From Rubripirellula sp. (lineage in GTDB: Bacteria; Planctomycetota; Planctomycetia; Pirellulales; Pirellulaceae): 64,000 nucleotides of DNA. The stretch's first letter is position 1, and each line of letters opens with the position of its first letter. Positions 30,345 through 61,121 of this stretch are shown here, one piece after another. The notes beneath the pieces were generated by a model. It was not told the origin of the DNA. It did not search any database and was given only the letters and a program-made list of their open reading frames with translations. The DNA lies in contig OZ244207.1 of NCBI GenBank assembly GCA_965216875.1, positions 6,560,001 through 6,624,000 on the forward strand, written 5' to 3'. The position numbers and the translations under genes are program-made.

Positions 30345-31187
30345 ATGATGCACCGACGCTACGCGCTTTCTGCGTTCGCTGTGGGCTTGGTAACGGTATG
30401 CGGTTGCAATCCGGCGAACCAACCCCAACCCAATCACTTTGCGGCAACACCGGTTGTTCATTCCTCTCGTGATGCCGAGCGATCAACCGACCCGGCCACC
30501 TTGGGGCAACCGTCGATCGAGCGGGAACTGCGCCCGAACCGGTCCCTTGGCCCATCCGGCCGGTACAAGCCGGAGCCTACCTTGCAGTCCGATTCGCTGC
30601 GGCAGAAGTGCATCGATGAACTCCGCCAACAGCGCTCCTATCGTTTCGACTTTGGGGTTCAGACGATCGATGGAAAGAGAATCTCGAAACGCGACTTCAA
30701 CGGTCGGCTCTTGATCGTCGATCTATGGGCGACTTGGTGCGGGCCTTGCAAACGCGAGATACCCCACTTCATCGCCCTACAACGAAAGTACAAAGATGCC
30801 GGGCTGTCGATTGTCGGATTCAACTTCGAACGCGAGTCGGGCTATTTGGCCAACGTTCGCAAAGTGCAATCGTTTGCCGATTCGGCAAGGATCAATTACC
30901 CGTTGGTCATTGGATCCGAAAAGATCTCAAAGCAAGTGCCGGACTTTCGCGCTTATCCCACGACGCTTTTTATCGATGGTAACGGCAAGGTGCGGCTAAC
31001 GATTGTTGGCGCTCGATCGAGGGCCGAGCTCGAAACGTTCGTGCAAATCCTTTTGCAAGATCCGTCCATCGACCCCGATGGCGTGACGTTGCCAACGCCG
31101 ATGGCGGATTCTGCGGGTGCGCAACCGGAGGGTCCGCCCCCCGTGAGGCTCAACCCATTCTTAACGGGCGACAAAGAAGTGCCGTAA
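30345..31187 (+). CDS. TlpA-like thiol-disulfide oxidoreductase, probable lipoprotein
   Basis: DLWATWCGPCKREIP, YPTTLFID; lipobox-like VTVCGC after a hydrophobic N-terminus. Confidence 0.9.
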   Translation: MMHRRYALSAFAVGLVTVCGCNPANQPQPNHFAATPVVHSSRDAERSTDPATLGQPSIERELRPNRSLGPSGRYKPEPTLQSDSLRQKCIDELRQQRSYRFDFGVQTIDGKRISKRDFNGRLLIVDLWATWCGPCKREIPHFIALQRKYKDAGLSIVGFNFERESGYLANVRKVQSFADSARINYPLVIGSEKISKQVPDFRAYPTTLFIDGNGKVRLTIVGARSRAELETFVQILLQDPSIDPDGVTLPTPMADSAGAQPEGPPPVRLNPFLTGDKEVP

Positions 31188-31353: not shown

Positions 31354-31428
31354 TCCGAAAAAGGCAAACCGATCGCGAGGTCGGGACGCAAAGTCACGGG
31401 TCTCTCCGAGACGGCCGGACTGCCGAAG
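31354..31428 (+). ncRNA. Cyclic di-GMP-I (GEMM) riboswitch aptamer
   Basis: GGCAAACC-GATC-GCGA-GGTC-GGGACGCAAAG P2 with GNRA loop; P3 TCACGGGTCTCTCCGAGACGGCCGGAC; TGCCGA 3' end. Equivalents of G20 (31363), A47 and C92 (31423) are present. Lies in the 5' leader of a signalling cluster. Confidence 0.92.
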
Positions 31429-31495
31429 CAAAACCCGCCCCAACACCAAAATGCGATTCGCCCGTTTTGCGGCAGGCGATTCGTGGGAGAGTCCC

Positions 31496-31885
31496 ATGCA
31501 ACAAGCCAAGATTCTAGTCGCCGACGACAGTCGGACGATTCGAGCGCTGGTCTGCCGCACTCTGACCCAAGCAGGCTTTGACGTCATGTTGGCTGCTGAT
31601 GGCTTGGAAGCTGTCCAGCTTGCTCGACGCGATCATCCCGATTTGGTGATTCTGGATATCCAAATGCCAGAGATGGACGGCTACACCGCGTGTGAGCAAA
31701 TCTTGGCGTTGGAAGATCGTCAATCTGAATTGCCCATCGTGTTTCTGACCAAAGACTCAGCCAAACACCTCAACGCGCTGGGCGCCCAACTGGGGGCCTA
31801 CCTGCCAAAGCCAGTTGAAGAAGAAACGCTGCTGTCGACCGTTCGCACGTTGCTCCATAAACGAGCAACCTCACAACTCTGCTAA
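31496..31885 (+). CDS. Single-domain response regulator (CheY/PilH-like)
   Basis: ILVADDS, VILDIQMPEMDG, VFLT, LPKP; RBS GGGAGAG before ATG 31496. Confidence 0.93.
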   Translation: MQQAKILVADDSRTIRALVCRTLTQAGFDVMLAADGLEAVQLARRDHPDLVILDIQMPEMDGYTACEQILALEDRQSELPIVFLTKDSAKHLNALGAQLGAYLPKPVEEETLLSTVRTLLHKRATSQLC

Positions 31886-31898
31886 CGGGATTTGGCAC

Positions 31899-32594
31899 AT
31901 GCTGATTAATGAAACACGACCAACACCCGAACAACTCGACGCAAAGAAGTTGCGCAGCGAGCTCGATGAATTCGTTGCACAAATCCAATCTCGTTTGGAT
32001 CAACTGTCACAATCGATCGCGCAATGTGAGTTAGGCGCCGACGCGCCTGCCGACGAGTTTTCAGCCGAGCCCAATGAGGAAGCTCTGGGTGCGTTGGAAT
32101 CGATCGGTGCGAGCGACCACCACGAAGCTCCAGCACCAAGCCCACTGCAAACGTTGCCGACGCCGCAACAAGAACTGCCGCCGCAGCAACCCGACTCCCA
32201 ACCACAACCCGTTTTGCAACCTGAGTCTCAGGTCGCAGAACCCGTTGCCGCTCCGGTGCAGCCCCCCGCTGCTGAAGTCCAACCCGCTGCTGAAGTCCAA
32301 CCGGTTGCTCAGGTCCAACCCGCCGCGCCAACACGCTCAGTTGCTTCGGCGCCTCCAGTTGCTTCGGCGCCTCCAGTTGCTTCGGCGCAGCCCGTTGCTC
32401 CAGCTCCAACAGAGCAGTTGCAAGTCACACCGGCCGAGCCAACCGCTCATTCCACTTCGCCAGCTTTGCCCGCTGCCGATCCCTTGCCAACTCCACCTGC
32501 GTCGAGCCAACCGGCAGCGTCCGAAACCGAGGACCCGTTCGATCGCTTGGCTGCGATCAAGCAAAGATTGGCCAAGCAAATCGAGAACGCATAA
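31899..32594 (+). CDS. Hypothetical helix - acidic Pro/Ala/Gln-rich linker - helix protein
   Basis: N-terminal helix LRSELDEFVAQIQSRLDQL, low-complexity middle, C-terminal DPFDRLAAIKQRLAKQIENA; 13-16 bp gaps to neighbouring genes. Confidence 0.75.
   Translation: MLINETRPTPEQLDAKKLRSELDEFVAQIQSRLDQLSQSIAQCELGADAPADEFSAEPNEEALGALESIGASDHHEAPAPSPLQTLPTPQQELPPQQPDSQPQPVLQPESQVAEPVAAPVQPPAAEVQPAAEVQPVAQVQPAAPTRSVASAPPVASAPPVASAQPVAPAPTEQLQVTPAEPTAHSTSPALPAADPLPTPPASSQPAASETEDPFDRLAAIKQRLAKQIENA
32265..32388 (+). repeat. In-frame 18-bp tandem repeats in a linker-coding region
   Basis: CCCGCTGCTGAAGTCCAA x2 (32265-32300) and CAGTTGCTTCGGCGCCTC x~3 (32338-32388), encoding PAAEVQ and VASAPP units. 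Confidence 0.85.
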
Positions 32595-32610
32595 CGCCTG
32601 AACAATAAGA

Positions 32611-33126
32611 ATGCCCATGGTTACTGCAACAGCTGAATCTTCGTCGCACTTGGCCGCGCAAGCGGACAAACACTGCGTCTTTCGATGCGGACAGTCTTGG
32701 TTTTCTGTACCGGCCATCGCCGTGCGTGAAATCTCGATTGCACCCTCATTGGTACGCGTGCCCGATTGCCACCACGCACTGGCTGGCCTCTGCCATTTGC
32801 GGAGCGAGTTTGTGCCGGTGATCGCTCTCGATGCATTGCTTGATGTTGACCAGCCAGAACCGAAGACGCATGACCGCTTGCTCGTGATCAACGGGACGTC
32901 GGTTTGGTCGCTGCTGATCGCGGAAGCCGCCGCACTCGAATCGCTCGAAACCATTGTCTCGCCCGAAGTTCGCGTTGATGAAACCAACCTTTCGGCCGTG
33001 ATGGGAACGGCGATGTTCCGCGAGAACATCGTTCGCGTCCTGAACCCAAACAGCTTGTTCCGACTTGCACAACATGCCCTGGAAGATGCCTGGGGCCGTC
33101 CGCCGCAACTCATTCACAACCCATAG
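32611..33126 (+). CDS. cheW: CheW-family coupling protein
   Basis: [52 protein letters not shown]; directly upstream of an MCP. Confidence 0.88.
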
Positions 33127-33145
33127 TGACGTAGGGAGCCTCCCC

Positions 33146-34501
33146 TTGAAACTCCAAGCCCTATTTATGTTGACCCAAGGTGCGACCGCTCTGATCGCAG
33201 CTGGGGCGTTTGTGGCCGCCTTCCAATCTGGCAATCCCGTCATGATTGGCGGCGCTGCCGTGGTCGCGCTGCTTGCAATCGCAGGCACGGCGTGGTGGCT
33301 CAGTCTTCGTGTCCAAGCCGGACTCGATGGCATCGAGCTTGTCGTTGCCGACCACGAGAAAGCCAATCTAATCCGCACCGGCGTTGCAGAGTTCGATGAA
33401 GCTGCGAAACGCGTTGGCCAATGTGCGAGCCAATGGGAATCGGTTGCAGCGAACACTCGAGTGCAAGCACGCGAGTTCCAAGAAATGATGTCGCTGCTAA
33501 GCCGACGCGGTTCGGACCGACCCTCAAGCGAGCAACTTCGCGACGTGTTGTCGGGTCTCGGTAACACGCTTCACACCCACCTGGCTCAAATCGAACGCGG
33601 TGCTACCGAGATCGAACAGTACGCCAAGTCGATCACGGAAGGGGCCGAACACCAAGGCCACGCGGTGATCAAGACGACCGCTTACGTTGAACAGCTTTCA
33701 TCGACGATCGATACCGTCTCGACAAACGCCCAATCGGCTCATTCGGCGATGCAACGCACGAGCGATTCGGCGAGCACAGCGCTCGGTTTGCTCAGCGAAC
33801 TCAGTAGCGGCATGAATCGTGTTCGCAATGAGTCGCAAAACTGTGAAAAGAAGCTTCGCGGACTTTGCGATCCGGCTCGCCAAATCAGCGCGATCGTCGG
33901 AACGATCAGTGACATCGCAGCTCGAACCGACCTGTTGGCATTGAACGCTTCGATCGAATCGATTCGTGCAGGCGAGCACGGCCGCGGATTCGCGATCGTC
34001 GCCGACGAGGTTCGGAAACTGGCCGAGCAAGCGACCGACGCGACACGCGAAATCAGCAGTCTGCTCGATTCGATGCAACTGGTCACGCAAGAGTCGATCC
34101 GAGGGATCGAACGTGAGCGTGAACAAGTTGACGCCGAAGTCGAACGTGCCACGGCAGCGGAGAATGCCCTGCAACGAATCTGTAGTGGTAGCGAATCAGA
34201 CTTGCAAGCGATTCGACACATCGCTGAGTCATCGACACAGCAACTGCAACTTGCTCAAGACGTCGTTCTTGCTGTTGAGCAGATCTCGACGATCGCCAAG
34301 GACAATCGCGGTGGTGCCGAGAACGTTTGTTGGACGATGAAGTCGATCGCTCAAACCAACCCGCAATTCTCGGGCGTGATTGACCGACTTCGCGGTTGTG
34401 GTGACGCCACACAAAACGGCTTCGAAATGGAAGAACCCGCAGCGGTGGTTCCACCGGTCGCAGCGGCAACGCCGGCTCCTGAAATGACACCAGCGGGCTA
34501 A
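33146..34501 (+). CDS. Methyl-accepting chemotaxis protein with a TM hairpin and no periplasmic sensor domain
   Basis: Signalling tip [38 protein letters not shown]; two N-terminal hydrophobic helices joined by QSGNP; TTG start after AGGGAG. Confidence 0.9.
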
Positions 34502-34512
34502 GAGGCACTGCC

Positions 34513-37263
34513 ATGAATAGCGAACATAACTCCGAAGCGCTGTCATTGGACGAGTCACGCGATCTGCTGAGCGAAGTCCGATGCGCCGCTGATCCACAGA
34601 CCAACCTGCATGAATTCGCAGGCTTGCTCTGTCAGTTGATCGACCTGTACGACCGTGCGGACGACGACCAAATCGCCCAGTTCGTCGGTAGCGGTCTCGA
34701 TGAAGTCCGCCAAGTGATGGACGCCGACGGATCGACTTCACAGAAAATGGAATCGCTCGGCGACGAAGCGATCAACCGCTGGGGCGAGCAACTTTCGTCG
34801 CTCGATGATGGCGACGAGGCTTCAATCGACGCTTGGGAAATGTCTGGCGGCGGCGACGCCGATACGGATTCCGATGCGGCAGACGATGATCTGATCGCAC
34901 CGAGCGCTGATGAAATCGGTTCGTTGTTGGCACAGCTTGGTGGTGGCGCCGCGCCAGCGCCAGAAGCTGCGCCTGCTGCCCAACCTACGGCTCAAGCCTC
35001 GCCCCAACCAACAGCTCAGGCCACACGCCCGACGCCCGTGATCGTCGAAGAGGAAGACGAAGGGCCGGAGATGACGGTCGACAAGCTTGATCCCGAACTT
35101 CGTGAAGCCTTTATGGACGACGCTTCCGGATGTTTGGCATCGATGGAAGATGCGTCGTTGCGATTGGAAGCCAATCCAAGCGACGGCGACTCGCTCAATC
35201 AGATGTGCCGCGAGCTTCACACGCTCAAAGGTGCATCGGCAAGTGTTGGATTGACCTCGCTCGCCGACCAGATGCACAAACTCGAAGATCAATTGAGGGA
35301 CGACCAACAATCGGGTCGAGCACCCGACATCAACGAACTGTTGAAGTGCGTTGATTCGGTGCGTGCTCAAGTGCTGGGCGAAGAGGCGGAGACGGCCGGC
35401 GATGCTCCTGCCCCCGCGCCTTCAGCGGCTCCCTCGCCGGCGCCGACGCAAACAACGGCTCCCGCCCCAGCGGCTTCGAAACCGGCTGCCCCTGCAACGC
35501 CGGCACCCGCCAAGTTGACCGGCTTTTCGGGCGAAGCGGCAAGCGATGACGAATCCGTTCGCGTGAAAGCATCGCAGCTGAATCGTTTGATGGACATGTT
35601 GGCCGAACTGGTCATGCTGCGTAACCGCCGCGAAACCGAGTTGGCGGATCTGCAAGAGATCTATCACGAATTGATCGGCAGCGTTTCCAAGATGCGTCTG
35701 TTGAGCAACGAAGGTCACATCGAATCGACGGCGACCAAGTCGGTTCAACTTTCCGAAGTTGCCAATGATGTTTTGGAAGCGGCTCAGCACCTTCGCAACT
35801 GTGCACGACCCGTTGCCGAAGCAAATACAGCCGTTTCCGGCTTCATCCGTCAGTTTCGTCAAGAACTGGTCGAACTGCGTCGTACTCCCGTATCGGGATT
35901 GTTTCGCCGCTTGCAACGCGTCGTTCGCGATGCCGCTCAAGCCGAAGCGAAACAGGTACGGTTGGAACTTGTTGGCGAAGATGCCGGCATCGAACGCTCG
36001 CTCCAGCAACGACTTTATGAGCCGCTGCTGCACATCGTTCGTAACTGTGTTTGCCACGGTATCGAAGACGCCGAGGGGCGTGCGCGTTCTGGGAAAGACC
36101 CTGTTGGCACGATCACTTTGGAAGCCAACTCGGGCCCCGAACTGTTCACGATCGAAATCCGCGACGATGGCAAAGGCCTCGACTACGACGCGATTCGCCG
36201 ACGCGGTATCGAGTCGGGTTTGATTTCGGCCAACCAAGTGCCGACGCGCGAAGAATTGTCGCAGCTGATTTTCCAACCCGGGTTTTCGACCCGTCAAACC
36301 GCCAACCAGGTTGCGGGCCGCGGCGTTGGAATGGACGTTGTCGCATCGACCCTGCAACGCATGCGAGGCTGGTTGGAAGTCGATTCCGAACCGAATAAGG
36401 GAACGCGAATCCGTTTGAGCTTCCCGCTACCCTCGGTCATTCAACACGCGATGGTCTTCCGGTCGGCCGGGCAATTGTTCGCTTTGCCGATGCAATCGGT
36501 TCAAACCGCTGGCGATACCTCGGAAAAAACTCTCTGTTTGGCATTGTCGAATCTGCTTGGAAGCGACGCGGTGATCGAGCCAGAGAATTGCCAACGCATC
36601 ACCTTGGCCGATGACAACGCCAAGTCGGTCACCTTGCTTGTTGACGAGATTGTCGGACCCGAAGAACTCGTGGTTCGACCACTGCCAACCCTGTTGAAAC
36701 AACATCCGTTCTGTGGCGGTGCGACGTTGTCGGGGATGGGCGAAACCGTCCTGCTTCTAGATGCACACCGAGTGGTCGAGTCGCAGTCACGCCGTATGCG
36801 AAGTTTGGACTTGTCGGCTGCAGCGGCTGGCCCGGCACCACAACGACCTCGCGTGTTGGTTGTCGACGATTCGCTGAGTGCGCGCAAACGCGTCGTTCGC
36901 TCACTGCGGCGATACGCCGTTGACATCGTCGAAGCATCTGACGGCAAAGAAGCACTCGAGATCCTCAAACGTGATGCCTTTGTCGCGATCTTTAGCGATA
37001 TGGAAATGCCACACGTCACGGGGATGGAGTTGCTTGCGGAAGTGAACGCCGAATCGGCAATCGATCCACCGCCGGTTGTGATCATCAGCAGCCGCAACGA
37101 AGACGAATTCACTGGCCGCGCACGCGAGCTCGGCGCGACCGACTACTTGATTAAACCACTTGCCGACGAAGCTCTTGACGGAGCCCTCGCCAGCATTCCG
37201 GCCTTGAGCCACCTGTTAACTGATTATGCGTCAACACTGCAAACGAGCGGAGAGATTCAATGA
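34513..37263 (+). CDS. cheA: Hybrid CheA kinase (Hpt - dimerisation - HATPase - CheW - REC)
   Basis: RELHTLKGAS Hpt, SVRVKASQLNRLMDMLAELV, PLLHIVRNCVCHGIE, IRDDGKG, FQPGFST...GRGVGMDVV, C-terminal REC (VVDDS, FSDMEMP, IKP). Confidence 0.95.
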   Translation: MNSEHNSEALSLDESRDLLSEVRCAADPQTNLHEFAGLLCQLIDLYDRADDDQIAQFVGSGLDEVRQVMDADGSTSQKMESLGDEAINRWGEQLSSLDDGDEASIDAWEMSGGGDADTDSDAADDDLIAPSADEIGSLLAQLGGGAAPAPEAAPAAQPTAQASPQPTAQATRPTPVIVEEEDEGPEMTVDKLDPELREAFMDDASGCLASMEDASLRLEANPSDGDSLNQMCRELHTLKGASASVGLTSLADQMHKLEDQLRDDQQSGRAPDINELLKCVDSVRAQVLGEEAETAGDAPAPAPSAAPSPAPTQTTAPAPAASKPAAPATPAPAKLTGFSGEAASDDESVRVKASQLNRLMDMLAELVMLRNRRETELADLQEIYHELIGSVSKMRLLSNEGHIESTATKSVQLSEVANDVLEAAQHLRNCARPVAEANTAVSGFIRQFRQELVELRRTPVSGLFRRLQRVVRDAAQAEAKQVRLELVGEDAGIERSLQQRLYEPLLHIVRNCVCHGIEDAEGRARSGKDPVGTITLEANSGPELFTIEIRDDGKGLDYDAIRRRGIESGLISANQVPTREELSQLIFQPGFSTRQTANQVAGRGVGMDVVASTLQRMRGWLEVDSEPNKGTRIRLSFPLPSVIQHAMVFRSAGQLFALPMQSVQTAGDTSEKTLCLALSNLLGSDAVIEPENCQRITLADDNAKSVTLLVDEIVGPEELVVRPLPTLLKQHPFCGGATLSGMGETVLLLDAHRVVESQSRRMRSLDLSAAAAGPAPQRPRVLVVDDSLSARKRVVRSLRRYAVDIVEASDGKEALEILKRDAFVAIFSDMEMPHVTGMELLAEVNAESAIDPPPVVIISSRNEDEFTGRARELGATDYLIKPLADEALDGALASIPALSHLLTDYASTLQTSGEIQ

Positions 37264-38879
37264 GCGACAAAACGGTATTGGTGATCGACGACAGCGCGAC
37301 GATACGTAAGCTGGTCGATACACACCTGAGTCCTGTCGGCTACCGCGTCGTGCTTGCACCCAACGCAGAAGATGGTCTTGAGTTGGCAGCGGAGGTCGGA
37401 CCGGACCTGATCCTGTTGGACCACCAGCTTCCCGGCACGACGGGGTACGATGTCGCATCGCAACTGGCAGCGACGCCTGAATTGGCCGCGATCCCAGTGG
37501 TGATCAGCTCGACGCTTCGCAAAAAGGCCTACGCCGAATACATCGACTTGGACAATGTCGTTGACATGTTGCCCAAGCCCTACACCGAAGACCTGTTGCG
37601 CACGACTGTCGCCAACGCTCTTGAAACGGCTGCGATGATTGTCGGATCGCAATCGCAAGGGTCGGCAGTTCCTGAAGTCATCAATCAACTTGATGAAGCT
37701 GCGTTGACGGGCACGCTGGCCTACTTTGGCCTTCGTGAGCTATTGGACTTTTTGAACAACGGTCGCAAAGTTGGTGTCCTTGAAGTCGAAGCGGATCGTA
37801 CTCGAATTCGTTTCCACTTGGACAAGGGTCGGATTCAAGGTGTTTACGCATCGGGCATCGATGGCGCACAGATCGACGAAATGGTCAATCGATTGCCAAA
37901 GTCGTTGGCCAACCTTGCACCGGTCATGAAAATGACCATCGGCGGACGCAGCTGTGCGGAAGTTGACGGCTTCGTCCAGCTCCTCGACCAGAAAGTGCTC
38001 GATCCGCGGTTGATGACAAAGCTGTTGCGTTACCAGGCTGCGATGTTGGTCCGCTATGCCTTTACCCAGCAATTGAAACTGTTCCGATTCGAAGCGGGCC
38101 ACATCGAAAACACGTTGCACAAGAACTTGCCGCTCGACATCTCGCTGCTCGCGTTGCTTGTCGAAGGTTGCATTCACGGCGAAGCCGAAAACCAAGCGGG
38201 CGGTCAGAACGAGACATTCGTGCGCCGAGCCATTCGTGGCCAGAACCTTGACCGCGCAGGGCTTTCAGCTCGTCACATGAAAGTGTTGAACGCCCTTTCG
38301 GATCCGAAGGGTACGGACGAGCTTTCCGCATCGCTTGGCTGGGACGAGGATGAAGTCCGTCAGGTGCTTGCTGGATTTGAAATGGCCGAATTGGTTGAAC
38401 GCCGAGCTCAAGCGGTCGCGGGTCAATTCGTTGTTTATGAACCCGATTCGGTGCAAGCTCAAGCGTTGCGATCATCGCTCGAAGATTCGGACAACCGATA
38501 CTCCGGCAAAGTCGTTCGCGACAAGCTCGCGATGCAATTGGTTCTTAAACGCTCCGTTCCCCACACGCTCATCTTCTCGGTTGATGAGGATGCGTCGTGC
38601 GAGTTGATTCGCCAACTCTTTGCAACGGAAAACCCCAACGCTGCACGCGTCAAGCGAATCGCTATCGCTTCGGGTGACAGTAACGACACCAATTGGGAAG
38701 AGCGGCTTGGCTTCACGCCGGACGACGTGATCTCGCGTCCATGCACCGCCGAGTTGATGTTCCGCTCGATGGATCGTCTGCTCGGTGCGAACCAAAACGA
38801 ACACGACGGGGCCATCGTGGACATCGTTTCAAGTGCCGGCGGAGTCGGTGCGGCTCAAGCCACAGGAGTGGAAGCATGA
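37260..38879 (+). CDS. Response regulator REC - DUF4388/PATAN-like - wHTH - pseudo-REC
   Basis: Intact REC (VIDDS, LLDHQLP, LPKP); ALTGTLAYFGLRELLDFLNNGRKVGVLEV typical of DUF4388; degenerate REC at the end; ATGA overlap with cheA. Confidence 0.82.
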   Translation: MSDKTVLVIDDSATIRKLVDTHLSPVGYRVVLAPNAEDGLELAAEVGPDLILLDHQLPGTTGYDVASQLAATPELAAIPVVISSTLRKKAYAEYIDLDNVVDMLPKPYTEDLLRTTVANALETAAMIVGSQSQGSAVPEVINQLDEAALTGTLAYFGLRELLDFLNNGRKVGVLEVEADRTRIRFHLDKGRIQGVYASGIDGAQIDEMVNRLPKSLANLAPVMKMTIGGRSCAEVDGFVQLLDQKVLDPRLMTKLLRYQAAMLVRYAFTQQLKLFRFEAGHIENTLHKNLPLDISLLALLVEGCIHGEAENQAGGQNETFVRRAIRGQNLDRAGLSARHMKVLNALSDPKGTDELSASLGWDEDEVRQVLAGFEMAELVERRAQAVAGQFVVYEPDSVQAQALRSSLEDSDNRYSGKVVRDKLAMQLVLKRSVPHTLIFSVDEDASCELIRQLFATENPNAARVKRIAIASGDSNDTNWEERLGFTPDDVISRPCTAELMFRSMDRLLGANQNEHDGAIVDIVSSAGGVGAAQATGVEA

Positions 38880-40291
38880 TTTCACAAGACACTCAATCAA
38901 CCGTCACGTTGACCGCACGTCATCGCGGCGGCGCCATCAAGAAACACGACCTTTGCAAAGACCAGGGCGTCTTTGTGGGGACATCGTCCAACTGCGGTCT
39001 GCAACTTGACGGCGAAGGTCTGTCAGAAATCCACTGCCGTCTCGAGTTCAATGAAGGCGAGCTGTGGGTTCAGGACTGGATGTCGGCCAACGGAACCTCG
39101 GTCAACGGAAACGCGATCGACGGAAACCACAAGGTTGGTTCGGGCGATGTGATCCGAATCGGTGACTACGAAATCACGCTCGGCGAGTTTTCAGCACCGG
39201 CGTCGACCCAAAACGAAGACCTGGGGCAAAACGACTTCGCTCAGGCCAACACGCAGACTTCGCTTGACGAGCCAGCGACGAGCGACGACGCGAGCGCAAG
39301 CTATGCCGACGAACCGGCCGGTTTCGAGGATGGAAGCGATGCTGATTCGACGGAGTCGGCCGATCAAGAGCCTGCTTTCGACGAACCGGCAAACGACAGT
39401 TTTGCCGCCGAAGAGCCCCAAATGGACTTTTCGTCGGACTTCTTCGACATCGAAGAAGAAGAGACCTACGACCGCGAAACGGTCGCGTTGCTGCAAGCCG
39501 AAATCGAAGACCTGCAAGCACAGCTTGCACAACGCGATGCCGAAGCGACGCATACGCCAGCCGCTTCCGAACACGTTGATCGAAATCCAGAAGACTCGGA
39601 TGAAGTCCTGGCGCGAATGCAGGAATTGATCGACGAAGCCAACCGAAGTGACGAACGCGTTGGCATCCTCGAAGAACTGCTTCATGCGGCCGAGGAAGCG
39701 AATCGTTCCGAACAAGAAGAGCGAGGTCAATTGGAAGCCTGGGTCGGTGACATCGAACGACGAATCGGCCAACGCGAAGAAGAGCACGCAGCCGAACTCG
39801 AGGCATTGCGAGCGCGTTTGGAAGAGGCCAACGACGAACAGGATCGTTTGCAACGTCAACTGCGCCAGGTTGCCGCTAGCGGTGGCGGTGGCGGAGCTGC
39901 GCCAAAGCAATACGAAGAAACGCTCGAGAAATTGCAGCAATCCAATCGCGAACTGCAGGAAGAACTTGGTGAGTCGCAAAAGCAGATCCGCCAACTCGAA
40001 CAACGCGCCGAAGAGCAATCGGAATTGAGCGAGTCGGCGCTGCGTGAAGAGCGAGCCAAGCTGGCCAAAGAACAAGCCGAGCTTTCACGGATGCGGTTCG
40101 AGATTTCGAGCAAGATCAAGGACGTCGAAGAGATGCCGAAGTCCGAAAACGCTCAAGATCGTGAAACGGCGGCCCGCATTCAAACCTTGCGACAGCACCT
40201 GCGTGAAATCCACGAACAGGAAAAGCAAGAGGAACGCGAAGCACCTTTGACGTCTCGCTTGAAGAAGCTCTGGAAACGCGTCGAGTACTAG
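38876..40291 (+). CDS. FHA domain plus acidic linker plus long coiled-coil protein
   Basis: FVGTSSNCGLQL...LSEIHCRL...DWMSANGTSVNG...GDVIRIG; about 250 aa of heptads; ATGA overlap with the upstream gene. Confidence 0.88.
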   Translation: MISQDTQSTVTLTARHRGGAIKKHDLCKDQGVFVGTSSNCGLQLDGEGLSEIHCRLEFNEGELWVQDWMSANGTSVNGNAIDGNHKVGSGDVIRIGDYEITLGEFSAPASTQNEDLGQNDFAQANTQTSLDEPATSDDASASYADEPAGFEDGSDADSTESADQEPAFDEPANDSFAAEEPQMDFSSDFFDIEEEETYDRETVALLQAEIEDLQAQLAQRDAEATHTPAASEHVDRNPEDSDEVLARMQELIDEANRSDERVGILEELLHAAEEANRSEQEERGQLEAWVGDIERRIGQREEEHAAELEALRARLEEANDEQDRLQRQLRQVAASGGGGGAAPKQYEETLEKLQQSNRELQEELGESQKQIRQLEQRAEEQSELSESALREERAKLAKEQAELSRMRFEISSKIKDVEEMPKSENAQDRETAARIQTLRQHLREIHEQEKQEEREAPLTSRLKKLWKRVEY

Positions 40292-40373
40292 ACGAAGACG
40301 AACGGCACCTCGGTCAATGTGTTGGCCGAGGCTTGAAAACAGCATCAATGATTGATTGCCCCACCACAAAACC

Positions 40374-41039
40374 ATGAACACGCATCCATCGACGACCGAT
40401 TTGCACAGTCTGGATCTCGCCACGGCGACTCCAGAAGCAATCGTCGCTGCGCTCGAAGAGGTGATCGCAGACGTTAACACGTTTCTGGCTGACTTTTGCG
40501 TGCGTGTCGGGCGGCAATCCGTTCCGGCCGAATCGCAAGACAAGCCGAATGAAGCGAAGTTGCGACGCGCGATCGAGGACCTGAAGGTCGAACGCGACCT
40601 TTGGGAAGCACGAAAGCAAAACGAAGAGGCTCGGATTCAAGAGAAGATCGACCAGCTGTCTGCAGCTTGGTTGCGACTTGAAGAAGAACAACGCGCGTTT
40701 TTGCAGATGACTCAAGGAAACCCGACGGCCGCTCACCGCGCCGCCGCGAATCCACCGACGACGGCTCAGCCTGCACCCACCGTGCAAGCCCCGTCACACC
40801 CAATGGCGGCTCCTTCGACGGCAGCACAACCGGTGCGCAGTCCCAGTGAGCTTATTGACCAGGCGCCTGCCGCTGCGGCAACGCCAAGTCAGCTTGTACG
40901 AACCACCCCGGAAACGCGACCAGTCGCGCCGCCTGTGCCAGAACAAGGTACGGCCAAGCCACGCGAGGACGCGGTTCTTCAATTTCAACGACTTCGACAA
41001 GAGATTGAGTCGAGTCGACCAAAGTCAGGCCAGCACTAA
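40374..41039 (+). CDS. Hypothetical coiled-coil plus Pro/Ala/Thr-rich linker plus C-terminal helix protein
   Basis: Coiled coil LRRAIEDLKVERDLWEARKQNEEARIQEKIDQLSAAWLRLEEEQR; C-terminal REDAVLQFQRLRQEIE; co-oriented within the cluster. Confidence 0.75.
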   Translation: MNTHPSTTDLHSLDLATATPEAIVAALEEVIADVNTFLADFCVRVGRQSVPAESQDKPNEAKLRRAIEDLKVERDLWEARKQNEEARIQEKIDQLSAAWLRLEEEQRAFLQMTQGNPTAAHRAAANPPTTAQPAPTVQAPSHPMAAPSTAAQPVRSPSELIDQAPAAAATPSQLVRTTPETRPVAPPVPEQGTAKPREDAVLQFQRLRQEIESSRPKSGQH

Positions 41040-41082
41040 GCTAGCCAATGTCATTCACGCTTTTTAAGCGGGAGAAACAAGA

Positions 41083-42126
41083 GTGTCACTAACAGCCCTA
41101 TTTGCAGACGCAGTCGGAAAGTGGAAACATCGTCCGGTCGTCCATGTCGACATGGAGGCAGGCTTTCCAGATGTCTCAGAGGCACCCCCGGACAGCCGAC
41201 GTTTGATTCGCGACCGACGATACAGCCGCGTGCTTTCGAGCCAAGGCGATGTGCCGTTTGATGATGTGTCGATCCGATGCGCTTGGAAAGCGCTCTCGCA
41301 CGAAATGGCAATCGTTCCTGGTGGCGAAGTGCGTTTGATGAGCGATACCGCCGTTGACCAAGGCTACGGTTACGAACTTGCGTCGTACGCCGGCGAGATG
41401 GTTGCGGTCGAATCGATCTATCTCGATCGAGACTGCATCACCAACGCCGACTACGCTCGCTTTGTTGATGCCGGTGGCTATGGCGACGTCAACCTGTGGC
41501 CCGAAGAAACGCTACCCAACGTGTTGCAATTCGTCGACCGTAGTGGCCGACCGGGACCATGTTTCTGGAGCGACGGCAAGCCACCAGAGGACCAGCTTGA
41601 TCATCCGGTCACTGGCATCTGTTGGTACGAAGCCAACGCGTTCGCGACTTGGGCGGGCAAGCGATTGCCAACGACCGAAGAATGGCAGCGCGCCGGAACT
41701 TGGCCGAAAGGACATTCGGGTGACACCGCCGAGCAACGGTATCCGTGGGGTAACTCATTCGATCCAGCCAAGGCCAACGTCTGGGCCAGCAACTTGGGCG
41801 GGACCGTTCCCGTGAGCCAAATCAATTCGGGGAACACTCCCAATGGTGTTCGCCAATTGGTTGGCAACGTTTGGGAATGGGTCGACGCTCAGTTCTATCC
41901 CGGTGCCTGTGAAGGCGCGTCAATTGTTCTCGACCAAACGATGGCCGAGATTCGCGGCGGTGCGTTCGACACGTACTTCCCCTCACAGGCGACCTGCCAA
42001 TTCCGCACCGGTCAACCATTGTTGTTCCGAGGTGCGAATGTCGGCTTCCGCTGTTGTGTTTCGGCAAACAGTTTGCCCAACCCACCTGAAAACCAACCTG
42101 CCAATAACGACGAGCCGCAATCATGA
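41083..42126 (+). CDS. FGE-sulfatase (SUMF1) fold protein
   Basis: ITNADYARFV, HPVTGICWYEANAFATWAGKRLPTTEEW, RYPWG, GNVWEW, RGG, NVGFRC; the catalytic Cys pair motif of true FGE is absent. GTG start after GGGAG. Confidence 0.9.
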   Translation: MSLTALFADAVGKWKHRPVVHVDMEAGFPDVSEAPPDSRRLIRDRRYSRVLSSQGDVPFDDVSIRCAWKALSHEMAIVPGGEVRLMSDTAVDQGYGYELASYAGEMVAVESIYLDRDCITNADYARFVDAGGYGDVNLWPEETLPNVLQFVDRSGRPGPCFWSDGKPPEDQLDHPVTGICWYEANAFATWAGKRLPTTEEWQRAGTWPKGHSGDTAEQRYPWGNSFDPAKANVWASNLGGTVPVSQINSGNTPNGVRQLVGNVWEWVDAQFYPGACEGASIVLDQTMAEIRGGAFDTYFPSQATCQFRTGQPLLFRGANVGFRCCVSANSLPNPPENQPANNDEPQS

Positions 42127-43037
42127 TGACCACTCAACTGATTGATGGAATGCCAAGCATGGCAACGGAATGCATCTGCTGTCGCACTCGGCTCGCCGAG
42201 CAAGACGAATACTGTGGCGAATGCCAGACACCGGCATCGCTTTCGCGAACGGTGACGAACCGCGTCGGCGAACAGAACTTCATTTCCGTTCTCGGCGCCA
42301 GTAACGCTGGAAAGACCGTCTACTTGGGATTGCTGTTGGACATCCTTAGCAAGGGTCCCGACGAATTCCGCGGATCGGCGACAAGTGCGTTTTCGGTCGA
42401 CCTGCAAGAACAGGTGGTGACCGCTCTCGAACGCCGCACGTTCCCCGAAAAGACTCCCGCCGAAGCCGACGAATGGAAGTGGCTGCACTGCCAGATTTCG
42501 ATGGCCGGTGCAGGCAAGAAAGGCGCGACCGAAAACGTCGACTTGATTTCACCCGACTTCGCTGGCGAAGCGATCGCGATGGAGATCAACCAAGCTGGAC
42601 TCTATCCCGCGATCAAACATGTCGTCTCCAAATCGAGTGGTGTGCTGATCCTTTGCGACTCGATTCGAGTCCGCGATGAAGGAAGCAGCGAAGACTTGTT
42701 TGCGATGAAGCTCGCTTCATACATCGCCCAGCTTCATGGACTCAACGGCGACTTTTCCAAGAAAGGCTCGGCTGGTCCTTCGGTCGCCATCGTGTTCACC
42801 AAATGCGATGGTTGTCCGGAAGCGGTTGAAGATCCAGCGGCATTTGCGGCGAACAACACGTCGCGACTGTACGAGTTCTGTCGCCGCACGTTCCAACGCC
42901 ACGCCTTCTTTGCGGCAAGTGTTGCTGGAAGCTCGGGGATTTTGGCTGACGAACACGGCGTGCAAATGCGTTTGCCGTTCCACACCCAACCTCAAGGTGT
43001 CGTCGAACCACTGCAATGGATCGTCGGACGCGGTTGA
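42123..43037 (+). CDS. Zn-ribbon plus TRAFAC-class GTPase (double-GTPase 2-like)
   Basis: CICC...CGEC Zn ribbon; G1 GASNAGKT, G2 EKTP, G3 DFAGE, G4 TKCD, G5-like ASVAG, C-terminal PQGVVEPLQWI; ATGA overlap with the FGE gene. Confidence 0.85.
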   Translation: MMTTQLIDGMPSMATECICCRTRLAEQDEYCGECQTPASLSRTVTNRVGEQNFISVLGASNAGKTVYLGLLLDILSKGPDEFRGSATSAFSVDLQEQVVTALERRTFPEKTPAEADEWKWLHCQISMAGAGKKGATENVDLISPDFAGEAIAMEINQAGLYPAIKHVVSKSSGVLILCDSIRVRDEGSSEDLFAMKLASYIAQLHGLNGDFSKKGSAGPSVAIVFTKCDGCPEAVEDPAAFAANNTSRLYEFCRRTFQRHAFFAASVAGSSGILADEHGVQMRLPFHTQPQGVVEPLQWIVGRG

Positions 43038-43049
43038 TCAGGAGAAGTT

Positions 43050-43760
43050 GTGTCGCAACCGATGCAGATTCAACAGGCGATCTTCACGTCGTCTGATCGA
43101 GGAACGATGAAGGGGTACCAGCTGGTCGCAAAATCAGCTGGTGTCGATCGGGCGTGCGCCCAAGAGCTTTGTCGTTGGTCGCCTTCGCAGATGACCAGCG
43201 ATGACCCTTCGCGATGGACGATCAACTACTTTCCCGTTCTCGACGATCACGTCGCAGTGACTCGTACCGTTTTGGGCGGGCCGGAATACAGTGCCCGCGG
43301 TGGCATCCAAGTCGTGACGCTGATCTTGGTGCTCACGAACGATCAATTCGCAAACTACGGATGCAACGCCGTTTCCATTGCTCGGACCGCAATGTTGTAC
43401 GGTTGGCTCCGGTTGCCCCTGGATGTTGGGCGGCAAGCGTTGGAAACGATTCAGTTGCCACACAAGCCATTGGTTGAACCGGTCGTCGTTCCTGATCACG
43501 AAGACGCACTGCTTCAATCGGTGATGTCGATGGTTCGTGAGTCACGACGCGTCGCGATCATTGGCGACCATGACCCGCTGGGAACCATCGAGACTCTGAT
43601 CGCTTGGTTGCCCGTGGAATCGAGAAGGGCATTCAGCTTCACAACCGGATTGGCGCCAGCCGTCCGCCGACCGTTCCAAACCCATTTCTTGGACAACGTC
43701 TCCAACTCGACGCAGCGGACACTCGATTCGCAAAGCATCGCCTGCGTCGCCGCCTGTTAG
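43050..43760 (+). CDS. GTPase-associated protein 1 (GAP1-N2/GAP1-M-like)
   Basis: QAIFTS...GYQLVAKS N-terminal motif and LP...RRAFSFTT motif recalled from GAP1 families; 12 bp downstream of the GTPase, with an AGGAG RBS. Confidence 0.68.
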   Translation: MSQPMQIQQAIFTSSDRGTMKGYQLVAKSAGVDRACAQELCRWSPSQMTSDDPSRWTINYFPVLDDHVAVTRTVLGGPEYSARGGIQVVTLILVLTNDQFANYGCNAVSIARTAMLYGWLRLPLDVGRQALETIQLPHKPLVEPVVVPDHEDALLQSVMSMVRESRRVAIIGDHDPLGTIETLIAWLPVESRRAFSFTTGLAPAVRRPFQTHFLDNVSNSTQRTLDSQSIACVAAC

Positions 43761-46953: not shown

Positions 46954-49900
46954 CTATTCGAAGTAGAAAATGTAATCAACAGGAATTCCATCAGGGCAGT
47001 TCTCAAGCCTAGTTCCGTTCGGAAGAATCCCCTCGGTGGAGAACAGGTTGTCCTGATCGCGTCGAAGTTCCCAGATTTGATAGTAGAAGTTTTCAAACAT
47101 AAAGGCTGTCAACCAAGAGGTCGCATAAATGATTCCGCCTCCGTTGTCCTTAAATGAATTGCCCCACTGTAGCAAGTCGTAGCCCCAAGCCATGCTGAAG
47201 GCTGTCACGCGGCCTGGCACGCGTTCTTCACTCAAATGACTTAAGAATGGGTGTGATCCAGAGGCTTCGTTGAGTGAGTGGAATACGTTTTCGACCACAG
47301 TTTCATGGTAGCGGTTTATGTGATCATATCGGCCCTCTGTTCCGTGGCTTCCGATTCCGTTGACTGGTTTCGTAGCACCGTCTCCCGGACTTACGAAGGT
47401 ATGGAATGCTGCGGAGTGGGCAATGGCATTTGATAGGTCCGTTTCTTTTGCGCGTACGCTGGTTCCTAGCAATGAAGTGGAGTTGACAATTGTGCCCGTA
47501 TGTTCGAACGCAATAACCGTTGGATTGCCGCCGTTGCTATACCCCGCGACATGAATGGGCTCGGAACTCCCTAGGCGTCGTTTTTCCACAGCTATTGATT
47601 CGATGAGCTTCCCGAGTTCTTCGCCCGCCGCACGATTTAGCTTCGCTTTTGTGCTCAAGATGGCGTTAGATGTTCCAGGCGGTTGCGGGTCAGTTCCGGC
47701 GCTTGAGCGCTCTCCGTATTTGAAGTGAATGATTTTCTGTTTCGGGCCGCTTTTCTGATCCAGTCGTTCGGCAAAAGCTGCGATTTCGCGATTGTTCAGA
47801 TTCTGGATGCCGTGAACGATAATAATCACTCGTCCATCTGGGTCGATGGCGTTGATCGGGTGGTTGGCGGTGTAGCGAGTGAGGTTGGTGTCGCCTGAAG
47901 CGAAGCTAATCGGATCTTCGCTGACCCAGTTGCCTGTCTCTGCGTCGTACCAGCGGTGGTGGTTGTTTTGAAGTTCGGTCGACTCATCGTAGGGACGGCC
48001 GGTGAAACCGAACAGTGAGTCGATCGCCGCGTCGGTCTCGGATACCACATTCCCATAGCTGTCGTATTGGATGTGGTTGATCGGAGAACCGGATGAATCG
48101 ACGAGATCACGGACTGATCCCAGGTGATCCGAAAGTGGATAAACGACTTCGTTGGTGACCGCATCTTCCTCGGCAAGGATCTGGTCAACGACCGCGCCCC
48201 AGGCATAGCGGTCACTCACTCCGGCGTCGGAGCGTGCCAGGACGATATTGCTGCCGTCATAGTCGTAGAAGGTTGTTTCCGCATCGATGGGTCCGTCGCC
48301 ATCGACGTCGACTGACTTGCTGATCCAGCGGTTGAACGGATCGTAGCGGTGATAAACGTGATGGATCGCATCATCGCCGGCGGACGCGCGCTGGATGACT
48401 TCGGTCAATCGATTTCGATGGTCCCACCGATACTCGGTCACATTGCCGGTTTGCGTGTCGGTGCGCAGGATCCGATTGCCTTCGTTGTCATACTCGTATT
48501 GGACGGGTCCGTTCGACATGATGCGGTTGTGATCGCCCGTGGTTTGCCCAACGCCAGCTCGGTTGCCGTTTTCGTCGTAAGTATAAGATTCGTTGGCTTG
48601 GCCGGTATGACTGGCCGAGGTCAATTGGTTGTCATTGTCGTACCCGTAGTTCGACGGTCCATCGACAAGACTATCCACCTGTGTGATGCGACTGGCGATG
48701 TCGTATTCGAATTGATAGCCAGCAATGGAGGTGCCTGTTGAGTTGATGTGCGAGATTGACTGGAGTCGGGCCTGTCCGTCAAAGGCGTAGTCAGACGTTG
48801 CGATGGTTTGAGTTCCAGCAAGATCGGCGTACCGGGCAAGTTGCGTCAGTTGACTTGCACGATTGAATTCGAAATCGAATCGTTTCGGAGAAACCGTAGC
48901 GCCTGGTTGCGACGACTGGGTCAATACTGAAAGACGGTGCAGCGCGTCATACGAATAGGTGTTCTCGAAATCGAGCGATCCATCGATGTTGGCTGCGAGA
49001 CGGGTACGGCGGTTCTGGGCATCAAACTCGTTGTGCAAACCAACCACGACACTTTCATTGGTCGAGTCGATCGTTATCGCGCGGCCGAGACGATCGTAGG
49101 CATAGTCGTATCGGCTCTGGGCGACCGAATCCTCGACCGCGAGGACTTGGTTGGCAACGTCATAGGTCGTGGTGATTGACCGTGTCACGTTTTCGGTGTC
49201 GCCGATCCAATGCTCGGCGATCGGTCGATGAAGATGATCGTAATCGTGACGCGTCACGCGACCATTGCGATCGGTTACCTCGACCAGATTGTTCATTGCG
49301 TCATAGTCGTAGCGTCGAGAAACGGCACTTCCGTCAAGTGAAATCGTCTCGGTCGTGTTGCGGTCGAGTTGATCGTATTGCCAACGCGTCGTGTTGCCGG
49401 AGGGGTCAGTGAGTGAGAGGAGGTTGCCGACTAGGTCATAGGTGTAGCTGGTCGTTGGATGTCCAAGGGGCCCAGTCGCACCGTCGAGATCCTCACGAAC
49501 CTGTGACGTTCGGCGGTACAGATTGTCGTAGGTGTACTGGGTAAGATAGCCGTTAGGGTCAATGGTCGACGTTTGGTTTCCAACTGAATCGAAAGTGAAG
49601 TGGGTGGTCGCCGCCGCAAGCGGACCCGTTCCGTCCGGATCGGGATCGATGACGGTGATCACACGCCCAAGGTCGTCGTAGTGGTTTGTGGACGTTCGCC
49701 CAAGAGGGTCGGTCACGGTGATCGGCTGACTGGCAACGTCATACGTGTAGGTGGTGATGGGAGAAGTTAGTGGTCCAGTCGGTCCGTCAGGATCGGCTTG
49801 GATGGTAGCGGTGTTTCGATAAAGGTTGTCGTATACGAACTGAGTGACGCTTCCCACGGCGTCAGTGCTGGATGTTTGGTTTCCAACCGAATCATAGGTG

Positions 49901-60672: not shown

Positions 60673-61121
60673 CGGAATGTGCCCCAAACGGCATCGATCA
60701 GGACGTGCCGCTGCCCCCACAATCCTGCCCCAGGATCATTGTGAACGGCACGCCCGATCGATGCGCCCCAATGTTTTTAAGTGTGAACCAGAATGGTTTT
60801 CGTCACTGAAAAGTTTGTCGGCTGTTCTTCAGCCATAGCAGGCTTCTGCTGGGGGGTAAGTTTAGGGTTGGTATCCAACATTACAATACAAAAAAACAAA
60901 TAAACATAAAAAGATTTAATGACTAAAGGTATTGAGGGTTGACGGCATTTCGTTGTTTGAATGCAAACCGTTGTGAGATTCTCAAGAGAACACAACCACG
61001 AATCTTCCAGATGCCACGAATAGGTTCGTAGGGGCTTGTTTGCAGGAGGCAGTGAACCTGGGGGCAATGCGGTGTGCCGATGGTTGACGACGTTGCAGTC
61101 GAATGACGAGTGTGGGTTGAG

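Follow-up and report, generated by a model that had tools for sequence, protein, structure and literature searches.

Two halves of one planctomycete operon: a chemosensory cluster resembling pilus-type systems, joined to a Ras-like GTPase with a predicted longin-DENN partner

In cyanobacteria, each pilus-controlling operon holds a PATAN regulator (PMC5812497), and PATAN-REC proteins (REC standing for receiver domain) of Synechocystis bind PilB1 (PMC9090330). PATAN genes also lie near some genes of MglA GTPases, and in Myxococcus mglA is unlinked from frz (PMC4316618). GTPase systems with GAP1-N2 proteins were described as predicted conflict systems by Kaur et al. 2020 (PMC7159879), who list 904 organisms with such systems in their Table 1 and mention planctomycete versions with FGS domains; the words "chemotaxis" and "cheA" do not occur in the main text of that paper. 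We analysed a stretch of 64,000 nucleotides (the window) from Rubripirellula sp. (assembly GCA_965216875.1, contig OZ244207.1, positions 6,560,001 to 6,624,000 of the forward strand), which contains an operon composed of a chemosensory (che) half and a GTPase half. Both halves belong to known kinds, and we found no description of their join, nor of GAP1 as a longin/DENN protein, in the literature searched, to which subscription papers mostly did not belong. An earlier note on this DNA was likewise aware of no description of the combination; this applies to the join, while the FGE-GTPase-GAP1 trio was already mentioned by Kaur et al. We tentatively suggest, at somewhat less than even confidence, that the operon encodes a two-module signalling unit placing or timing type IV-family pili, Tad/Flp pili being the most likely kind.

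According to the open reading frames of the window, the locus comprises 11 genes, all on the + strand (31496-43760), headed by one riboswitch. Intergenic distances range from 11 to 82 bp (in order 13, 16, 19 or 40, 11, 82, 43 and 12), and ATGA overlaps are found at three junctions, namely CheA/REC-DUF4388, REC-DUF4388/FHA and FGE/GTPase. Pfam assigns to genes 1-6 Response_reg; nothing; CheW; MCPsignal; Hpt, HATPase_c, CheW and REC; and REC with DUF4388. Genes 7-11 receive FHA; nothing; FGE-sulfatase; DO-GTPase1/2; and GAP1-N2, with GAP1-M slightly under the cut-off. The eleven co-oriented genes, their order, gaps of at most 82 bp and three overlaps, all listed in the earlier note, are borne out by these coordinates and domain assignments, and, as it stated, the 11 proteins include no CheR, CheB, CheD, CheZ or flagellar protein. 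A promoter and terminator scan of the region gave 1 and 16 sites, no more than in shuffled sequence (3.1 and 17.4).

The joined arrangement is conserved. We examined 88 loci remaining after de-duplication (4 duplicates were dropped), and in 50 of the 50 that hold both the REC-PATAN (REC-DUF4388) gene and the GTPase gene the order is collinear; the linkage is therefore not due to chance. We are highly confident that the operon is a real selected unit. It spans three families, designated here f1 (that of the window), f107 (probably Isosphaeraceae, judging by names of its members) and f19, two of them outside the order of the window; all counts come from related genomes, and kin are not independent. 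Among 201 family genomes, the REC-PATAN middle region was detected in 37 and the GTPase in 91. In 32 of the 37, the GTPase lies approximately 4-6 kb downstream on the same strand, in 2 it is found on a different contig, close to its start, and 3 (G018, G500, G503) have none. Among 301 genomes of the class, 35 have a detected CheA orthologue (search restricted to the best 5 candidates of each genome) and 68 the GTPase; both halves occur in 29 and neither in 227. The two halves share one contig in 27 of these 29 genomes; the remaining two (G571 and G590) have an operon that is broken between the coiled-coil and FGE genes, with both parts kept. Searches for CheA and for the GTPase return the identical 25 of 60 f107 genomes, 23 with both on the same contig and 2 split. 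In f19, the full operon occurs in one genus, and neither half is present in any of the 70 genomes of a further family, f20. The notion of a recent fusion inside Pirellulaceae was dropped after the class-wide survey and the joined loci in other families. Named orthologues come from Roseimaritima ulvae, Rubripirellula lacrimiformis and strain K23_9. One of 80 metagenomic CheA loci belongs to this system (its sequence ends before the GTPase genes), and the other 79 gave no match to GTPase, GAP1, FGE, FHA or coiled-coil protein. Linkage of che, GTPase and GAP1 genes is consequently conserved far beyond the genome of the window. The earlier note would have been contradicted by halves unlinked in relatives: the joined form is linked, and at the same time the halves are not obligately coupled.

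GTPase modules also stand alone. In the fetched examples these consist of a coiled-coil gene, FGE, GTPase and usually GAP1; no homology was found between the coiled-coil protein of the window and that encoded 5' of stand-alone modules (hhalign probability 16%). In a quick unrooted GTPase tree of 54 rows, a long branch (SH-aLRT 100) separates the che-linked from the stand-alone GTPases, and two genomes carry one module of each type (L074/L186 in G367, L076/L187 in G427). In almost all loci the GTPase gene is succeeded by GAP1; L049 and L050 have a GTPase without detected GAP1. A second, che-only copy is present in f107 genomes (L170, L171). Two f19 loci (L160, L161) have a CheA that nests among f1 sequences, apart from other CheAs of f19, and are from the only f19 genomes with the GTPase half; their operon may have been acquired by transfer. 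A distant GTPase-domain gene at L052 (G026:C6; 660 aa, weak DO-GTPase1 match, unannotated neighbours) is outside this family.

The che half appears complete for phosphotransfer and devoid of adaptation enzymes. In the aligned loci, CheA keeps His236 in 54/54 and Asp829 in 51/54 and the phospho-accepting Asp54 of REC-PATAN is kept in 53/53. REC-PATAN is the only PF14332 gene of the genome, this family being named PatA_N in newer Pfam. The single-domain REC has a conserved acidic pair, phospho-Asp, Thr and Lys, and its gene was undetected in most f107 loci; the helix-linker-helix protein has weak orthologues at the same position in relatives. The chemoreceptor (MCP) has no sensor domain and starts with two neighbouring hydrophobic helices (hydropathy maxima at residues 5 and 28). 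A Deinococcus MCP aligns with it over 241 residues without gaps, and CtpM matches it at equal length (263 vs 263 positions). Receptors of the type IV pilus class are of the 40-heptad type, to which this MCP may belong.

The type IV pilus (Tfp) class of chemosensory systems was reportedly defined by Wuichet and Zhulin in 2010. Tfp-type features of the locus are the absence of CheR/CheB, the order REC-CheW-MCP-CheA and a PATAN regulator. CheA carries a C-terminal receiver, as in the Tfp class, and a single Hpt stretch; several Hpt domains are typical of proteobacterial ChpA. Systems of the ACF class (Wsp/Frz-like) encode CheR and CheB, neither of which is in the cluster. The only CheB of the genome sits 2.7 Mb away in a separate cluster of CheA, MCP, CheB and CheR (G000:C1:3867261-3874973, G000 being the genome of the window), and a third small che cluster has a CheA-like and an MCP-like gene (G000:C1:7222126-7226380). 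Closest CheAs in a plasmid library are Deinococcus CheA-REC proteins with approximately 31-33% identity. In a FastTree phylogeny of 78 rows, 34 planctomycete CheAs form one clade (99) with two Deinococcus CheAs adjacent (98); named references are few, and these CheAs may belong to the Tfp clade. Judged from the sequences, the che half resembles pilus-type systems, which lack CheR/CheB and have a PATAN regulator. The likeness to the type IV pilus class proposed in the earlier note gains support from gene order, PATAN regulator, CheA tree and absent CheR/CheB, and the label of an alternative-function class, given there as well, fits worse.

In the GTPase half, residues of the G1, G2, G3 and G4 motifs are kept in 67-68 of 68 GTPases, and there is a single Zn ribbon. 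The AF2 model of the GTPase matches G domains of RagD, Arf6 and Rab at Z ~15, a tie that names no subfamily. It is no MglA-family GTPase with roadblock regulator, given that Pfam places it with DO-GTPases and roadblock proteins match the GAP1 model at Z ~4 only.

The GAP1 protein is predicted to consist of a longin domain and a DENN core. Its AF2 model (pLDDT 91.9) was used in a fold search, where TagF was the best whole-length match (Z 8.5, rmsd 4.6, 197 residues aligned), followed by DENND10 (Z 6.5, rmsd 5.7, 209 aligned) and DENND1A (Z 6.2, rmsd 5.3, 188 aligned); DENND1A/B score Z 6.0-6.2 and alignments cover GAP1 residues 1-236. The N-terminal 140 residues match a Loki longin (Z 6.9) and GATOR1, C9orf72-SMCR8, FLCN-FNIP and Lst4 (Z 5.2-6.4; for the GATOR1 subunit Z 6.1-6.4, rmsd ~3.5, 121 aligned). 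TagF, longin or DENN proteins fill 9 of the top 10 rows, with moderate scores, and Foldseek puts the same families first, only one of them at E < 0.001. A d-DENN domain is absent: GAP1 ends at 236 and the alignments reach as far as chain residue 257-271. Eight positions do not vary among the aligned GAP1s (65/65); they include G22-Y23, which opens strand 2, and E79, S81 and R83. The E79-x-S81-x-R83 motif lies in the loop that joins strands 4 and 5 of the model, which we take to be also the location of the arginine finger in longin GTPase-activating proteins (GAPs). Eukaryotic longin GAPs carry their arginine finger in the longin domain and, immediately ahead of strand 2, a GP motif (PMC12290439; see also PMC8213707, PMC9473554 and bioRxiv 2020.04.15.042515). 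It is likely that GAP1 regulates the neighbouring GTPase; that it does so as a GAP is about an even bet, and an exchange factor (GEF) activity is rather unlikely. The GTPase switch assumed as output in the earlier note is, with its own regulator, structurally plausible by folds and residues; it did not prove to be an obligatory output, as discussed below.

Throughout the operon, parts expected to catalyse appear functional and those for which binding would do appear degenerate, as judged by their motifs. Phosphothreonine-binding FHA domains have Gly-Arg at a position occupied here by Gly-Thr, and no FHA domain was matched in 6 of 6 f107 orthologues. The motif of formylglycine-generating enzymes (FGE) is a catalytic cysteine pair; this pair is absent from the FGE-fold protein, which has a single Cys in the motif region in 54 of 65 sequences. 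No hydrophobic helix was found in it, hence its listing as cytoplasmic. Identity of the FGE-fold protein across 11 loci is 44-74%, similar to that of the GTPase.

The riboswitch connects the operon with Tad-pilus genes. The c-di-GMP-I aptamer that had been read upstream of the genes was confirmed as c-di-GMP-I-GGC (RF03167, model positions 1-80) with 72.5 bits (cut-off 59). The window has no other Rfam match, and the aptamer ends 67 nt before the first start codon. All four RF03167 matches in this genome head either the operon, two flp pilin genes or a TadG/TadE-like operon. In five further genera, chosen for carrying the riboswitch on the operon (best 150 candidates scored per genome), 17 matches, 3 of them below cut-off, head the operon (5), flp (6), Tad pseudopilin genes (5) or something else (1), so that in six genomes 20 of 21 (4/4 here, 16/17 elsewhere) precede the operon or Tad-pilus genes. 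The attachment role considered in the earlier note is supported by this regulon. In the Tad locus of the window's genome, each of the two flp genes stands behind its own riboswitch, and the separate riboswitch-headed TadG/TadE-like operon opens with a protein of ~215 aa conserved in relatives (the Tad-related riboswitch loci are G000:C1:6477029-6483532 and 3577865-3580283). The 5' strand of the second aptamer stem (31398-31405) is complementary to the ribosome-binding region (31484-31495), with a matching double change in L059. Among 10 folded leaders, this stem pairs with the ribosome site in several free folds; fixing the aptamer clearly raised accessibility of the Shine-Dalgarno sequence in 3 of 10, that of the window not included. 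The complementarity hints at a translational ON switch, for which the folding gives mixed support.

How the halves work together can be explained in several ways. On one transcript, two independent modules might be carried, the che half steering pili via REC-PATAN and the coiled-coil, FGE, GTPase and GAP1 proteins forming a separate membrane-stress or conflict switch of the kind suggested for GAP1-N2 systems. We regard this as doubtful, though it deserves serious attention. Each half also occurs alone, 6 of the 301 class genomes being che-only and 39 GTPase-only; natural breaks at the junction of coiled-coil and FGE genes exist in G500, G571 and G590; planctomycete GAP1-N2 systems listed by Kaur et al. 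have FGS effectors; and a Deinococcus cluster shows the same che order without any GTPase. Yet hallmarks of conflict systems are missing. The GTPase module is single-copy, has a fixed order and genome-like GC, FGE is as conserved as the GTPase, no FNIII component or GAP1-C was matched among the 11 proteins, and PADLOC returned no match for FGE, GTPase or GAP1. The co-distribution of both halves in exactly the same f107 genomes likewise disagrees with independence. Alternatively, the pathway could be coupled and its output a general landmark of the pole or bud site (polarity, stalk or holdfast, budding), which we find improbable. GTPase, regulator and coiled-coil scaffolds recall Frz-RomR-MglA/B logic, and the output seems non-flagellar; the riboswitch regulon, however, points to Tad genes. 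To our knowledge, budding is class-wide in these planctomycetes. Budding was among the roles considered in the earlier note; a core role in it is unlikely, since both halves are missing from 227 of the 301 genomes of the class and from every one of the 70 in f20.

A further proposal casts GAP1, FHA and FGE proteins in the roles of TagF, Fha and TagR; they would form a checkpoint of type VI secretion that works post-translationally and is gated by the che pathway. TagR is an FGE-fold protein. TagF is the best structural match of GAP1, and its binding to Fha uses conserved residues including an Arg (PMC5995506); VipB has a match in 23 of the 29 operon genomes vs 83 of 227 genomes with neither half. 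This enrichment is nevertheless confounded by kinship, VipB has no match in 6 of 29 operon genomes (one with two contigs only) and 18 of 39 GTPase-only genomes, and Arg83 remains invariant even where the FHA domain is absent, that is in f107 orthologues and stand-alone modules. We therefore rate such a checkpoint as quite improbable. A type VI secretion-like gene cluster surrounds the VipB match at G000:C1:7111734-7126753. An accessory system for flagellar chemotaxis is largely refuted and its chance very slight: the genome of the window has flagellins, but these were unmatched in 7 of 10 operon genomes and a separate CheA/CheB/CheR cluster exists. Flagellin served as the marker after FliG_C had been rejected for weak, non-flagellar-looking matches in 62 of 70 genomes; in f107, weak FliG_C matches in 18 of 18 genomes and absent flagellin in 5 of 5 tested suggest a non-flagellar FliG-like protein.

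A pilus-directed two-module unit, too, has several observations counting against it. Half systems are common, 57 of the 91 GTPase-bearing family genomes being without the REC-PATAN gene, and one locus (L188, G503:C51) has lost FGE and GTPase genes and kept GAP1 directly after a short coiled-coil gene. As the halves are separable in both directions, the GTPase is not an obligatory output. The G3 glycine is followed by Glu149 instead of Gln in 65 of 68 GTPases. Fold scores except that of TagF are all under Z 8, TagF itself is no GTPase regulator, the GAP1 profile matched no solved chain at sequence level and gave no DENN, longin or TagF match in PDB and Pfam, and the GP of eukaryotic longin GAPs is replaced by GY in GAP1. 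No pilus genes adjoin the operon in the window's genome. CpaB and PilM occur in 70 and 69 of 70 chosen genomes, and being near-universal they cannot pick the pilus type by co-occurrence. The riboswitch is present at 10 of 33 che-bearing loci, all in f1, and is a late addition to the operon; co-regulation leaves the pilus as target unproven.

For the pilus-directed unit we propose the following model. Its parts, as read from the sequences, are a membrane receptor without sensor, CheW, an intact CheA-REC and two phospho-acceptors with no adaptation enzymes. To these are added coiled-coil/disordered proteins (two or three), an FGE-fold protein that is non-catalytic, and an intact Ras-like GTPase with its longin/DENN-like partner. 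CheA would phosphorylate REC-PATAN, which might then act on a pilus motor or scaffold, by analogy with cyanobacterial PATAN-REC on PilB1. The coiled-coil proteins could hold the GTPase module at one site, where Arg83 of GAP1 would switch the GTPase off, resulting in a bistable "build here" mark. In the lineage of the window, c-di-GMP would set the amount of the whole kit together with Flp pilins. Confidence differs between the parts of this model. Action of both halves in one pathway is rather probable, and we lean slightly towards pili as output; Tad pili are a possible target, type IVa pili an unlikely one. The most specific version, in which a bacterial longin-DENN GAP1 is an arginine-finger GAP and chemosensory kinase and c-di-GMP drive a switch marking the Tad-pilus site, is still speculative and by itself doubtful.

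Table 1. Features of the operon in window coordinates
Feature	Position	Strand	Basis
c-di-GMP-I-GGC riboswitch aptamer	31354..31428	+	Rfam RF03167, 72.5 bits
Single-domain receiver (CheY/PilH-like), 129 aa	31496..31885	+	PF00072
Helix - Pro/Ala-rich disordered linker - helix protein, 231 aa	31899..32594	+	no Pfam/NCBIfam match
CheW	32611..33126	+	PF01584
Chemoreceptor (MCP)	33146..34501 (start TTG 33146 or ATG 33167)	+	PF00015
CheA hybrid: one Hpt, kinase, CheW-like domain, C-terminal REC	34513..37263	+	Pfam
REC-PATAN (DUF4388 = PatA_N) response regulator, 539 aa	37260..38879	+	PF14332
Degenerate FHA domain, acidic linker, long coiled coil	38876..40291	+	PF00498
Coiled coil - disordered linker - short C-terminal helix, 221 aa	40374..41039	+	no Pfam match, position conserved
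Cytoplasmic FGE-fold (FGS) protein	41083..42126	+	PF03781
Zn-ribbon TRAFAC (DO-) GTPase	42123..43037	+	PF19975/PF19993
GAP1 (N2 + M), predicted longin + DENN-core/TagF fold	43050..43760	+	PF20013, AF2 model

Two neighbours of the operon may be mentioned. Immediately 5', on the same strand, is a gene of a TlpA/AhpC-TSA-like thioredoxin (30345-31187, +). On the opposite strand, 46954-60720 encodes a protein of 4588 aa in which Ig-like, FG-GAP-like and YD/RHS-like repeats and a distinct C-terminal tip are recognisable by eye; it resembles a giant secreted RHS-type protein.

In planctomycetes, which are without FtsZ, the operon represents a defined candidate for pole marking and the switch from swimming to attachment, with orthologues in cultured strains. 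Zhang et al. 2012 (PMC3521125) regarded the DENN core as restricted, in what was then known, to the eukaryotic DENN module and traced longins to MglB; in 2025, longin GAP motifs were reported from Asgard archaea as well (PMC12290439). A bacterial longin and DENN-core protein beside a Ras-like GTPase would provide a candidate mechanism for ~900 uncharacterised GAP1-N2 systems. If our assumptions are true, the Tad pilus would be under chemosensory control and bacteria would possess a DENN-GTPase pair, and the DO-GTPase/GAP1 family as a whole would appear in a new light.

Taken together, the operon shares features with five described groups. The nearest named kin of the che half is the PATAN-linked cluster of Deinococcus (NZ_CP086381.1, NZ_OV024759.1), closest together with cyanobacterial tax/Pix systems. 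It has the order REC, CheW, MCPs, CheA(REC), DUF4388, REC and no cheR/cheB, one cluster being read from the MCPs onward; here, in contrast, a REC-first fusion unites REC and PATAN, the MCP is devoid of a sensor domain, and the operon continues with five more genes (coiled coils, FGE, GTPase and GAP1), whereas no GTPase exists there. Frz-RomR-MglA/MglB of Myxococcus likewise combines chemosensory input, response regulator, Ras-like GTPase and a regulator of the longin/roadblock superfold, and for our locus a pilus output is proposed; the GTPase is of another family here, the regulator is longin-DENN rather than roadblock, CheR/CheB are lacking and all genes form one operon. With the GAP1-N2 DO-GTPase systems of Kaur et al. 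the locus has in common a Zn-ribbon TRAFAC GTPase with Glu in Walker B, a GAP1-N2 downstream and an FGS partner. Those systems comprise an FNIII-repeat component, a three-domain GAP1 (N, M, C) and highly variable effectors, whereas the present one has one Zn ribbon, one GTPase and joined che genes, and neither FNIII, GAP1-C nor variable effectors. TagF of type VI secretion is closest in whole-protein fold, and an FHA protein is encoded in the same operon, but GAP1 neighbours a GTPase gene instead of type VI secretion genes and the FHA domain is dispensable; in a TagF preprint (bioRxiv 2025.12.08.692957) the words DENN, longin and GTPase do not occur. Eukaryotic longin-DENN proteins (the GEFs DENND1/DENND10; the GAPs FLCN, NPRL2 and SMCR8) are only ~5-12% identical to GAP1, which has GY in place of GP and lacks a d-DENN part, and no second longin subunit is encoded in the operon. 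What the predicted GAP1 shares with them is a longin domain followed by a DENN-like alpha/beta core, an invariant Gly starting strand 2, an invariant Arg in the longin loop and an adjacent small GTPase.

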